NCBI GenBank assembly: GCA_029212365.1 | Contig: JARGOC010000010.1 | Span: 13,441 to 77,440, forward strand | Origin: Roseovarius sp. | Lineage (GTDB): Bacteria > Pseudomonadota > Alphaproteobacteria > Rhodobacterales > Rhodobacteraceae | Length of the DNA: 64,000 bases | Direction: 5' to 3' | Shown here: positions 59,296 to 61,981 of the stretch, in pieces | Layout of the letters: each line of letters starts with the position of its first letter | How positions within the stretch are numbered: the first letter of the stretch is position 1 | Made by a program: the position numbers and the translations under genes | Notes under the pieces: generated by a model | The model's input: only the letters and a program-made list of their open reading frames with translations | What the model was told of the DNA's origin: nothing | Database searches by the model: none

Positions 59296-59847
59296 TTAAG
59301 GTGTATTTTTTGACAATAGGCGGTCCAAGGATAGCGGCCCGGCACCTTTGACGACAATCACCAGCAACAGGAATATCCACAAAGCGCGCTGATCCATGAT
59401 CAGGGAGTCGGGGATTTTGTCGAACCACGCACCAAGTGTTGCAGGTTCATCAATGGCACGGTGGCCAAAAAGATCGGTCAGGGTTTGCATCACGACAAAC
59501 CCGATCATGCCAAGGGCCGACAGCCGCGTCAGCAGGCCGATGACGATCAGCAATGGCAACAGAAATTCAGCCCAGGTGCCCGCCATGACCACCAATGTGT
59601 GAAACAGGGACAACTGGCTGATGTCATATCCCGCGGCCTCCATCGCGCGTGGGAAAATCTGCGCATAGGCCCCGACAGAGGGCGACAGAAAGCCAAAAAC
59701 ACCATCTCCCAGTTTGGTCAGTCCTGAGACCCAGAAATAGAGCAGAAATATCGCTGCAAAAAGAACACGCGCCAGAGTGGGCAACAGCCAATCGGCCCGC
59801 TCTATTCGCTCAAGAACAGTGTTATGCAGGGATATCAGGGCGTTCAT
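59296..59847 (-). CDS. DoxX-family membrane protein, last gene of the MNIO peptide operon
   Basis: 183 aa. Four TM segments with a DoxX-like pattern (LLPTLARVLFAAIFLLYFWVSGLTKL...). The ATG overlaps the stop of the DUF2063 gene (ATGA at 59844-59847). Confidence 0.85.
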   Translation of the reverse strand: MNALISLHNTVLERIERADWLLPTLARVLFAAIFLLYFWVSGLTKLGDGVFGFLSPSVGAYAQIFPRAMEAAGYDISQLSLFHTLVVMAGTWAEFLLPLLIVIGLLTRLSALGMIGFVVMQTLTDLFGHRAIDEPATLGAWFDKIPDSLIMDQRALWIFLLLVIVVKGAGPLSLDRLLSKNTP

Positions 59848-60605
59848 GCAGTATCTCCGGACTTTAGTTGGGTGATTGCCCCATGCGCCAGCAGCAGGCC
59901 GAGCAAGGTGGCGAGGTCAAATTCAGGGTCGTCGTTCAGGGCCGCATCATTGGCGTTTGACAGGGTTTCGCCTGCCATAAGGGCCAGCATGCAGATGGCT
60001 GCGGGTTCTGACAACAGGTGTAGATCAGGGTCAAATTCGGGCCGCAGCACCAGCACAGATTGGGCGGTGGCGGGTGGTTTGGGCGCGCCGTCCTGCATGT
60101 TGAATGTCCAAATACCGTGGATCGGCCAGGGCGAGCGGACAAGCAGGGCGGATGGCGCAAACGTGAACCGTGCCGTGGCCATGTCCTCGGGGGTCAATGC
60201 TTGCAGGTCATGGGCATCAATCGGGGCGGCGTCAGCGGCGTGATAGGACACCCGCATTGCCTGCTCCAGACGGGCGGTATCGGCCAGATACTTTATATGT
60301 TCCAATGGTTTGAACCCGGCCAGAAACGCGGGCATGTCATCACCATATTGCGATAGCATGGGCACCTTGGGCGGGTGTTGGCGCAGGAAAAGCCCTGAGA
60401 TGGCTTTGAAGTTTTCAGCGCCAATCAGCTTGGCAATCACTGGAAAGCTGATCTCCAACGCCTCGGTCAGGGAGGAGGCCACATTGTTGCGATAGACCGC
60501 AAAACGGCTGCCTGCCGGTTGGCCTTGCCCATCGGACAGGCCCAAGGGTACGGGCTGGTCAGGGTCAAGCAGTGCTGTATGGAATTTGGTTTGTGTCACG
60601 CTCAT
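59844..60605 (-). CDS. bufC: DUF2063 protein, partner subunit of the DUF692 enzyme (BufC/MbnC-like role)
   Basis: 253 aa. [16 protein letters not shown]...[23 protein letters not shown]...[23 protein letters not shown] is the DUF2063 N-terminal signature. The ATG overlaps the DUF692 stop (ATGA at 60602-60605). Confidence 0.85.
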
Positions 60606-61459
60606 GCCGCAACCTTTTGCAGGGCATTGGCGGCGCGCGTGGCCTCATCGGCCAGCACCGGCCAGTCGGGCACATTGGCATCCCATTCGACCAGCAGGGG
60701 CCGGGGACCTGAGCGCTCCAATGTGTAATCCAGCAATGCCCAGACCGGGTCAGCCACCTCGCGGCCATGGCTGTCAATCAACAGCGGGGCACCGTGGTCG
60801 TCCTCGTCTTCGTCATGGCCGCCAAGGTGGATTTCACCCACACGGTGCAACGCGAAGGCATCAACATAGTCGTGCGGATCAAGTTTCAGGTTGGTCGCGG
60901 ACACAAAGATATTGTTCACATCCAAAAGCAGGCCACACCCGGTGCGTTTGGCAACCTCATCCAAAAAATCGGTTTCAGCGTAAGTGCTTTCATCAAAGGC
61001 CAGATAGCTGGAGGGGTTTTCCAACAGCATTTGGCGGCCCAGCACGTCTTGCACCTGATCGATGTGATCGGCGACACGGGTGAGTGTGGCGTCCGTATAG
61101 GGCAGGGGCAGCAGGTCATTCAGGAAATGTGCGTCATGGGTGGACCAGGCCAGATGCTCGGAAAAGCTGGCGGGTTGCAACCAGTCGCACAGGTGTTTCA
61201 GGCGGGCAAGGTGAGCGCGATCAAGTGGCAACTCACCACCGATGCTCAGGCCAACGCCGTGCACGGAAAAAGCAAAGTTTTCAGCAAGGTGGCGCAGTTG
61301 TGCCAAGGGCCGGCCACCATTCCCCATATAGTTTTCCGCATGGATCTCCAGCCACTCAACGGGGCGCGCATCAGTTGTGATGTCGCCAAAATGCTGCGGC
61401 TTATAGCCAACGCCGGGCGCGGCAGGAAGGTGGGGAAACTTGGGGGGGGTATCCAGCAT
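60602..61459 (-). CDS. bufB: DUF692 multinuclear non-heme iron oxidase (MNIO; MbnB/BufB-like)
   Basis: Real start [24 protein letters not shown] (CAT 61457-61459), 285 aa. TIM-barrel-type motifs [48 protein letters not shown]. The 372-aa track ORF is an upstream extension overlapping the precursor gene. Confidence 0.9.
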
Positions 61460-61496
61460 GGCGGTGATGCTTTCAAATAAAAGGCACTTAATAAGA

Positions 61497-61524
61497 GGGG
61501 ATGCGCGAGAGCCCCGCGCACCCC
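61497..61524 (-). terminator. Intercistronic stem-loop (possible attenuator) between the precursor and enzyme genes
   Basis: Minus strand GGGGTGCGCG-GGGCTCT-CGCGCA(T)CCCC followed by UCUUAUUAAGUGCCUUUUAUUUG. Lies in the 73-nt gap between the bufA stop and the bufB ATG. Confidence 0.45.
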
Positions 61525-61532
61525 CCAAATTC

Positions 61533-61820
61533 TTAGCCCGGCAGGTCGCGGTCCAGTTCTTCGAGTGAACCCATGCGGTCGTCAGGCAGATCCATGGCGG
61601 CGCAGGTGCCTTCGTCAACCAATTTCCAGGCGTTGCCTTGGTAATCAACAGTGGAAGAACCGGCGCATGTGGTGCCTGCACCCGCTTTGCAATCGTTTTC
61701 GCCAGCCAGTGCAACGCCATAGCATTTTACTTGGCCTGCGGCAGAGGCAGTGCTGGTTTGTGCAGCCAGAGCGGCGGTGACAGCGCCAGCGATGGCAACG
61801 GTTTTCATCAAGTTCGACAT
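61533..61820 (-). CDS. bufA: DUF2282 signal-peptide-bearing 4-Cys precursor peptide (BufA-like)
   Basis: 95 aa. GGGAG lies 8 nt upstream. Sec signal [27 protein letters not shown]. Core [47 protein letters not shown] with Cys at 33, 44, 52 and 73. Acidic tail [21 protein letters not shown]. Confidence 0.85.
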
Positions 61821-61922
61821 TCGGATAGCTCCCTTTAGGTTACAAATTACATCGCGGTTTTGATCATGGGACAGACCGGGTCACCCTGATCTGCACCACA
61901 CCTATCGTGTTGCGATGCCTAA

Positions 61923-61981
61923 AATATAGCCGCTTTTTGAAGCAACGCACTTCACGAGCCCGTTAGACACGAACGCGTTAG
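61923..61981 (-). promoter_or_regulatory. Tandem 15-bp direct repeats CTAACG(C/G)G(T/C)TCGTG(T/A) plus TATATT -10-like box upstream of bufA
   Basis: On the minus strand, CTAACGCGTTCGTGT|CTAACGGGCTCGTGA (61981-61952) is followed 23 nt later by TATATT (61928-61923). There is no good -35, which suggests an activator-dependent promoter. Confidence 0.3.

Follow-up and report, generated by a model that had tools for sequence, protein, structure and literature searches.

The 64-kb window of DNA analysed here (Roseovarius sp., GCA_029212365.1, contig JARGOC010000010.1, forward-strand positions 13,441–77,440; coordinates below count from its first base) in all likelihood carries a canonical Buf1-type bufferin operon, bufABCD, of the captophorin class in a Roseovarius-like marine alphaproteobacterium. 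Four intact minus-strand open reading frames (ORFs) run from 61820 to 59296 in the order A–B–C–D. They encode a 95-residue precursor of the Buf1 (DUF2282) family (bufA, 61533..61820), a 285-residue multinuclear non-heme iron oxidase (MNIO; bufB, 60602..61459), a 253-residue DUF2063 partner with a helical N-terminal and an RRE-like C-terminal domain (bufC, 59844..60605) and a 183-residue DoxX-family membrane protein (bufD, 59296..59847). A genome scan with BufB as query gave 80 species-level loci for comparison, which all belong to the Roseobacter group, represent 26 named genera and have BufB identities of 73–85%; the operon is intact in 77–80 of these 80 species. An earlier sequence-only reading had proposed a bufferin-type MNIO operon on the basis of the same four genes, their lengths and two ATGA overlaps. 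The ORFs lie at exactly the coordinates it gave and the overlaps are seen in the sequence, its assignments to DUF2282, DUF692, DUF2063 and DoxX all score above cut-off in profile searches, and every bioinformatic feature of Buf1 operons that was tested is present.

The cluster itself is one more Buf1 operon among thousands, in a family characterised between 2024 and 2026, so that the sequence-only reading was mistaken in treating bufferins as a little-studied class: thousands of Buf1 and Buf2 clusters, with a core of precursor, MNIO, DUF2063 and DoxX genes, are catalogued (PMC11626156, PMC12452194), a 2026 study unites these systems as thiooxazole metallophores or "captophorins" (PMC13097082), and relatives from Roseovarius have already been named. 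A literature search joining DUF692/DUF2063 with roseobacter names gave no useful result. What is new here is the roseobacter-wide fixed position of the operon, a putative operator that is not of the SigF type and an obligatory hairpin between the precursor and enzyme genes. Taken together, these features suggest a roseobacter form of the operon that is a vertically inherited core feature at a fixed site, thrS–bufABCD–arsC-like–cspA, with a lineage-specific operator, an obligatory ratio-setting hairpin and no ECF (extracytoplasmic function) sigma F; we hold this combined reading tentatively, as having a little less than an even chance of being right.

Precursor, enzyme and partner proteins

Scores of Pfam and NCBIfam models were judged against each model's curated cut-off. 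BufA matches DUF2282 (PF10048) over residues 31–78 with 78.9 bits (cut-off 22.4). A search gave 5232 homologues with E ≤ 1e-3; the nearest come from Roseovarius and already bear the name "BufA1 family periplasmic bufferin-type metallophore" (NCBI/UniRef). By inspection, residues 1–27 form a predicted signal peptide (MSNLMK / hydrophobic core / ASA), with K6 making the n-region basic, residues 7–20 hydrophobic and ASA at 25–27, and this pattern recurs in the 80 relatives. The 68-residue core that follows is acidic and polar, and the only hydrophobic stretch of the protein is the N-terminal one of signal type. Its four cysteines, Cys33, Cys44, Cys52 and Cys73 (core positions 6, 17, 25 and 46; spacing 11/8/21), are conserved to 90% or more among 50 diverse representatives aligned at the 50% identity level; in this alignment the window BufA carries every nearly invariant family residue. 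A GSL motif 3′ of CysIV is likewise widespread among the representatives, and the EGKCG motif was not found in the BufA sequence.

The enzyme is equally clear in its assignment. BufB scores 345.7 bits against the MbnB_TglH_ChrH model (PF05114, cut-off 25), and its best equivalog is "MNIO family bufferin maturase" (NF050167, MNIO_BufB; 371.6 bits, cut-off 310). The other equivalogs fall below their cut-offs, with HvfB at 239.2 against 360 and MbnB (TIGR04159) at 55.8 against 325, and the ApyH and ChrH models of NCBIfam are well under theirs. The closest structure is 3BWW (E 5e-48), followed by TglH and MbnB. Residues H102, E147, D180, N183, H211, D229, H231 and E258 align with the iron ligands of Vibrio MbnB (VcMbnB), D260 aligns with the proposed general base of that enzyme, and H67 is likely to be a ninth iron ligand, as judged from the 3BWW and TglH alignments. 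By these alignments the iron site of BufB is intact, and by its equivalog score the protein is an MNIO of the BufB type. The automatic ORF list extends the bufB frame upstream to 61720; the start was set at 61459, giving 285 residues, because most of the 80 loci have homologues whose alignment begins at residue 1 of this form.

BufC matches DUF2063 (PF09836) with 82.7 bits (cut-off 27.2), and its nearest homologues, also from Roseovarius, are named "HvfC/BufC N-terminal domain-containing protein" (NCBI/UniRef). No match to BufC was found in the PDB at the sequence level. A confident AlphaFold2 model built from 50 homologues (predicted local distance difference test score, pLDDT, 90.3) was compared with known structures by Foldseek, which gave TglI (8HCI_A, E 1.8e-7) as the best match and NGO1945 (3DEE, E 7.4e-5) as a further one; TglI is the partner subunit of the MNIO TglH, and NGO1945 is the founding DUF2063 structure. 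The RRE proteins 5V1V and 6JX3 match the model weakly (E > 1). BufD, whose gene stands last in the cluster, matches DoxX (PF07681) with 29.0 bits (cut-off 23.6) and shows four hydrophobic segments in its hydropathy profile, near residues 25–43, 85–103, 101–119 and 150–172.

The closest experimentally studied counterpart is buf1ABCD of Caulobacter vibrioides (CCNA_03363–03366; Leprevost et al. 2024, PMC11626156), which has the same four families in the same order. Like that cluster, the window locus has a Sec signal on the DUF2282 precursor, an MNIO above the BufB cut-off, an RRE-like DUF2063 partner and a DoxX gene in the last place, and its BufA equals C. vibrioides BufA1 in the 11/8/21 cysteine spacing and the 68-residue core length. 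In BufA1, with core cysteines 12, 23, 31 and 52, CysII and CysIII become 5-thiooxazoles and CysI and CysIV form a disulfide; BufB and BufC are necessary and sufficient for this modification in vitro, DoxX is dispensable both for modification and for the phenotype under copper, export relies on the Sec signal peptide, and the product, which binds both Cu(I) and Cu(II), aids growth under copper stress (PMC11626156). Unlike C. vibrioides, the window has neither adjacent sigF/nrsF genes nor a usable SigF promoter and carries a roseobacter-wide 31-bp motif instead, and its operon follows thrS within a conserved housekeeping block. SigF/NrsF control occurs in part of the bufferin family and does not define it.

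By homology with Caulobacter, BufA would be made as a 95-residue precursor whose central Cys44 and Cys52 would be oxidised in the cytoplasm by BufB and BufC to 5-thiooxazoles. The peptide would then be exported by Sec and cut by signal peptidase after Ala27, and a Cys33–Cys73 disulfide would form in the periplasm, so that the 68-residue product could bind copper and buffer excess metal. The calculated monoisotopic mass of the core is 6965.13 Da when reduced and unmodified, and 6955.05 Da is predicted for the mature form, with two modifications of −4 Da each and one disulfide. DoxX would be a conserved membrane accessory; in Caulobacter it is dispensable for modification.

Other known systems share parts of this design. 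The gig (gold-induced genes) operon of Cupriavidus metallidurans and its orthologues in Legionella and Bordetella consist of the same four-gene set (PMC11626156); such operons are known from metal induction or BvgAS control, and those regulators were not seen in the window. HvfABC/oxazolin, fontiphorin and gonophorin systems also combine an MNIO with a DUF2063-type partner, often with DoxX, and convert cysteines of a Sec-signal precursor to 5-thiooxazoles (PMC13097082). The precursors of these systems carry EGKCG repeats, whereas the window precursor lacks them and is of the DUF2282 type, and the HvfB, HvfC (47.9 bits, cut-off 142) and HvfX (22.4 bits, cut-off 80) models score far under their NCBIfam cut-offs for the window proteins. 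Methanobactin MbnABC shares the enzyme superfamily and the iron ligands, and its product, too, is a copper-binding peptide. Unlike MbnABC, the window has no MbnA-type leader/core peptide or dedicated exporter and its MNIO scores far below the MbnB cut-off; both the oxazolone-thioamide chemistry of methanobactin and its role in copper acquisition differ from those of bufferin.

Fixed position and putative control sequences

The buf operon is a vertically inherited core feature within a conserved housekeeping block and not an island, because its neighbourhood is fixed in the related loci and the window is otherwise made up of housekeeping genes. thrS lies directly upstream of bufA on the same strand in 75 of the 80 loci, an ArsC-family gene is convergent downstream of the operon in 71, and cspA comes next in 70. 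The sequence-only reading had singled out the locus as a self-contained specialised system, a description that does not stand for a part of such a block; it had also noted that no ECF sigma/anti-sigma pair is adjacent, and in agreement with this, a scan of 44 window proteins, every close neighbour among them, found no ECF sigma (Sigma70_r2/r4) or NrsF domain. An inverted repeat just 3′ of the stop codon of thrS (identified by Pfam), GGCGGCGGAATCCC...GGGATTCCGTCGCC (62039..62081, minus strand), was read from the sequence and is likely to be the thrS terminator and thus the upstream limit of the buf unit.

Between thrS and bufA lies a conserved bipartite motif of 31 bp (61950..61980, minus strand), composed of two tandem 14-bp pseudo-palindromes, TAACGCGTTCGTGT at 61980–61967 and TAACGGGCTCGTGA at 61965–61952, with centres 15 bp apart. 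The alignment and weight matrix, built from 51 distinct sequences, give the family consensus TSACG-N4-CGTGA-N2-CACG-N4-CGTGART. In a survey of related loci totalling 963 kb, the motif occurs once per locus and always upstream of bufA, in 75 of the 80 loci; neither the window nor the 963 kb holds a second copy, and the two halves are the only half-motif matches in the window. A metagenome scan added 33 marine sites that all lie between thrS and bufA. A TAnnnT hexamer follows the motif at a distance of 21–23 nucleotides (nt) in 53 loci; in the window it is TATATT (61923..61928, minus strand), a predicted −10 element at the conserved spacing, and no good −35 element could be read in the sequence between motif and hexamer. 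Relative to the promoter so placed, the half-sites would lie near −43 and −58, as would suit either an activator of class II type or a repressor that covers the −35 region. This arrangement points to a sigma-70-type promoter under a conserved 31-bp bipartite putative operator, and not to SigF; expression would be controlled through this operator by a regulator other than SigF.

Other promoter assignments fared less well. The only match in the window to the SigF promoter GTAACC-N16-CGAA (61843–61820, minus strand) was rejected, since it has an N14 spacer and overlaps the start codon. The GTAACC before the ribosome-binding site recurs in Roseovarius-like loci only, and the 61843–61820 match is absent in Ruegeria. 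The motif itself was also considered as a −35/−10 pair of ECF or sigma-32 type and was rejected, because the spacings, measured by hand on matrix positions, are 3–5 nt too long. A Shine-Dalgarno sequence, AGGGAG, was read 8 nt before the bufA ATG (61829..61834, minus strand), and AGGGAG or AAGGA stands at the equivalent place in relatives.

A small stem-loop (61893..61918, minus strand; core ATCG-CAACA-CGAT, 61916–61904) sits where the transcript is predicted to start. Leader hairpins of −7 kcal/mol or better occur in 35% of loci versus 8% of shuffled sequences, and the stem varies by genus (ATCGC/GCGAT, TGTC/GACA, GTCGCC/GGCGAT), with G-U pairs and A/C-rich loops; with moderate confidence, we take it to covary between genera.

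The most constant RNA feature of the operon follows bufA. Starting 6 nt past the stop codon, a GC-rich hairpin of 14 pairs with a 3-nt loop and −26.3 kcal/mol (61496..61526, minus strand) precedes CUUAUUAA. In the 79 loci counted, with shuffled sequences as controls, a hairpin of at most −15 kcal/mol lies 3′ of bufA in all 79, and one of −20 kcal/mol or better in 68 versus 0 of 79 shuffles; the median hairpin between bufA and bufB has 12 pairs and starts 11 nt past the stop. The 79 hairpins comprise 71 distinct stem sequences, which differ between genera, so that the structure is conserved and the sequence is not. No Rfam family matches this hairpin or the leader stem-loop, and a text search of the two main bufferin papers found no mention of a hairpin, stem-loop or terminator after bufA. 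Because only about 40% of the hairpins have at least three U in the next eight bases, we read the element as either a leaky terminator or attenuator or an RNA-protecting stem, by which bufA mRNA would be kept in excess over bufBCD mRNA. An excess of precursor mRNA over enzyme mRNA is common in ribosomal-peptide operons. The downstream junctions are tight: the ATGA overlaps read at 60602–60605 (bufB/bufC) and 59844–59847 (bufC/bufD) would couple translation of bufB, bufC and bufD, and the 4-nt bufB/bufC overlap is retained in 77 of 79 related loci. bufD is present 3′ of bufC in 77 of 80 loci; a 4-nt overlap joins the two in 39 of 77, and in most loci the overlap or gap is at most about 13 nt.

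Candidate regulators were sought through position and through the motif. An AraC gene (56451–57401) was dismissed, as it is syntenic in 1 of 80 loci only. A MarR gene (52533–53123, plus strand) belongs to an extended syntenic block with buf in 27 loci, with proteins 72–89% identical, above the identity of BufC; no copy of the motif lies near it, and its product is a candidate buf regulator only. This gene stands in a row with genes for an XRE-type HTH protein and an Sdh5/SdhAF2 flavinator (51813–53123, plus strand). A literature search for the palindrome found no match, and the metagenome motif scan pointed to no regulon or regulator.

Outside the buf loci, the motif occurs on one metagenome contig (L162:2385–2415, GC 67%), flanked by a leuC-like gene and a small lipoprotein gene. 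TACAGT follows it at 22 nt, and no other non-buf occurrence has a TAnnnT hexamer at this spacing; the same regulator may have a second target here. Most other metagenome matches are one identical sequence, TGACGAAAYTGTGAAGCACGAGAGCGTGAAT, on about 75 contigs (L081–L200), many labelled human gut. On L081, the one contig inspected, a 1137-residue ORF begins about 100 nt downstream of it, with no buf or thrS genes nearby; this sequence is probably a chance match with no tie to bufferins.

The gap between thrS and bufA is occupied by other genes in a few relatives. Two metagenome-assembled roseobacters hold an inserted GGDEF-EAL gene together with a gene for a periplasmic protein of about 170 residues (L048:610–3150, L062:1550–4102), and two Shimia loci (L045, L065) have an inserted Hint-domain-like gene at this place. 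As the insertions are GGDEF-EAL or unrelated genes, they were rejected as buf regulators.

Function and competing explanations

The same machinery and product could serve another job, namely that of a housekeeping periplasmic metal buffer or chaperone under non-ECF control rather than a last-line defence against copper, with variants in which it supplies or guards cuproenzymes, handles another metal or answers oxidative, hypochlorite or sulfur stress. We consider this unlikely. A core position held among housekeeping genes in 75 of 80 species and 26 named genera would suit such a role, as would the conserved operator that stands where SigF and NrsF are absent nearby, and published work reports induction by gold, cadmium and copper, BvgAS control in Bordetella and a possible stress role of DoxX. 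However, copper binding and protection against copper hold for every member examined by experiment (PMC11626156, PMC13097082), and core synteny by itself is no proof of constitutive expression. A decaying or silent remnant with an unmodified peptide is very improbable. Nothing specific speaks for it beyond the precursor genes without a nearby MNIO and the clusters of unclear activity noted in the literature, whereas none of the four ORFs is broken, the enzyme keeps its catalytic ligands and the precursor its near-invariant residues, and conservation across 80 species extends to the operon, its junctions, the hairpin and the operator. We see practically no room for the older database reading, which takes DUF2282 for an integral membrane protein and DUF2063 for a DNA-binding transcription regulator and sees only a loose relation among the four genes. 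The Pfam texts still say "Predicted integral membrane protein" and "Putative DNA-binding domain", and some source names repeat them; yet BufA is a signal-type stretch followed by a polar, acidic, cysteine-bearing core, the BufC model best matches an MNIO partner subunit, the genes are translationally coupled, and the in vitro modification of BufA by BufB and BufC in Caulobacter refutes this view at the family level.

Several points weigh against the reading that we prefer, a copper-buffering bufferin operon with its own sigma-70-type promoter, operator and ratio-setting hairpin. Modification, export, metal binding and co-transcription are predictions for this locus, made from sequence and homology, and its metal specificity is an extrapolation from Caulobacter and a few further species, in papers that leave other metals and stresses open. 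The absence of SigF/NrsF nearby, together with that of a usable SigF promoter, means that the inducing signal could differ. The promoter is placed by conserved spacing, and a second sigma-70-like match, TCGCCA-16-TATATT (62043–62016, minus strand), lies upstream of the motif; the alignment of related loci shows no conservation of this match, and were it the real promoter, the motif would fall in the transcribed leader. A clear U-tract is missing in about 60% of the hairpins after bufA, which makes true termination uncertain.

If the fixed position, operator and hairpin do act together as proposed, they would make up a regulatory circuit new to bufferins. Nearly all roseobacters, a dominant group in the sea, carry bufferin genes and carry them at a fixed position, and control there appears to do without the SigF/NrsF pair known from Caulobacter. 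The conserved operator and hairpin are concrete handles on the regulation and stoichiometry of bufferins in abundant marine bacteria, and the operator, used as bait, would offer a direct route to the sensor and to the physiological signal.

Other features of the window

The immediate neighbours of the operon, as assigned by Pfam, are threonyl-tRNA synthetase (thrS), the ArsC-family protein, a cold-shock protein, folA and thyA, and the remaining window genes are of housekeeping type too, with propionyl-CoA carboxylase, methylmalonyl-CoA mutase, PPK1, PPK2 and UvrB among them. The PPK1 and PPK2 genes lie at 26328–28502 (minus strand) and 46519–47487 (plus strand), respectively; polyphosphate has been linked to metal tolerance in other bacteria. 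A 225-residue protein encoded at 22422–23099 (plus strand) combines TerB (tellurite resistance) and DnaJ domains. At 53230–54599 (minus strand), DUF1194 and DUF1287 genes adjoin with a 4-nt overlap, and DUF1194 is a tandem duplicate in Ruegeria loci. A predicted secreted protein of 96 residues (58075–58365, plus strand), with six cysteines, a lysine-rich middle and no Pfam match, has homologues that adjoin cspA in about 16–18 of the 80 loci.

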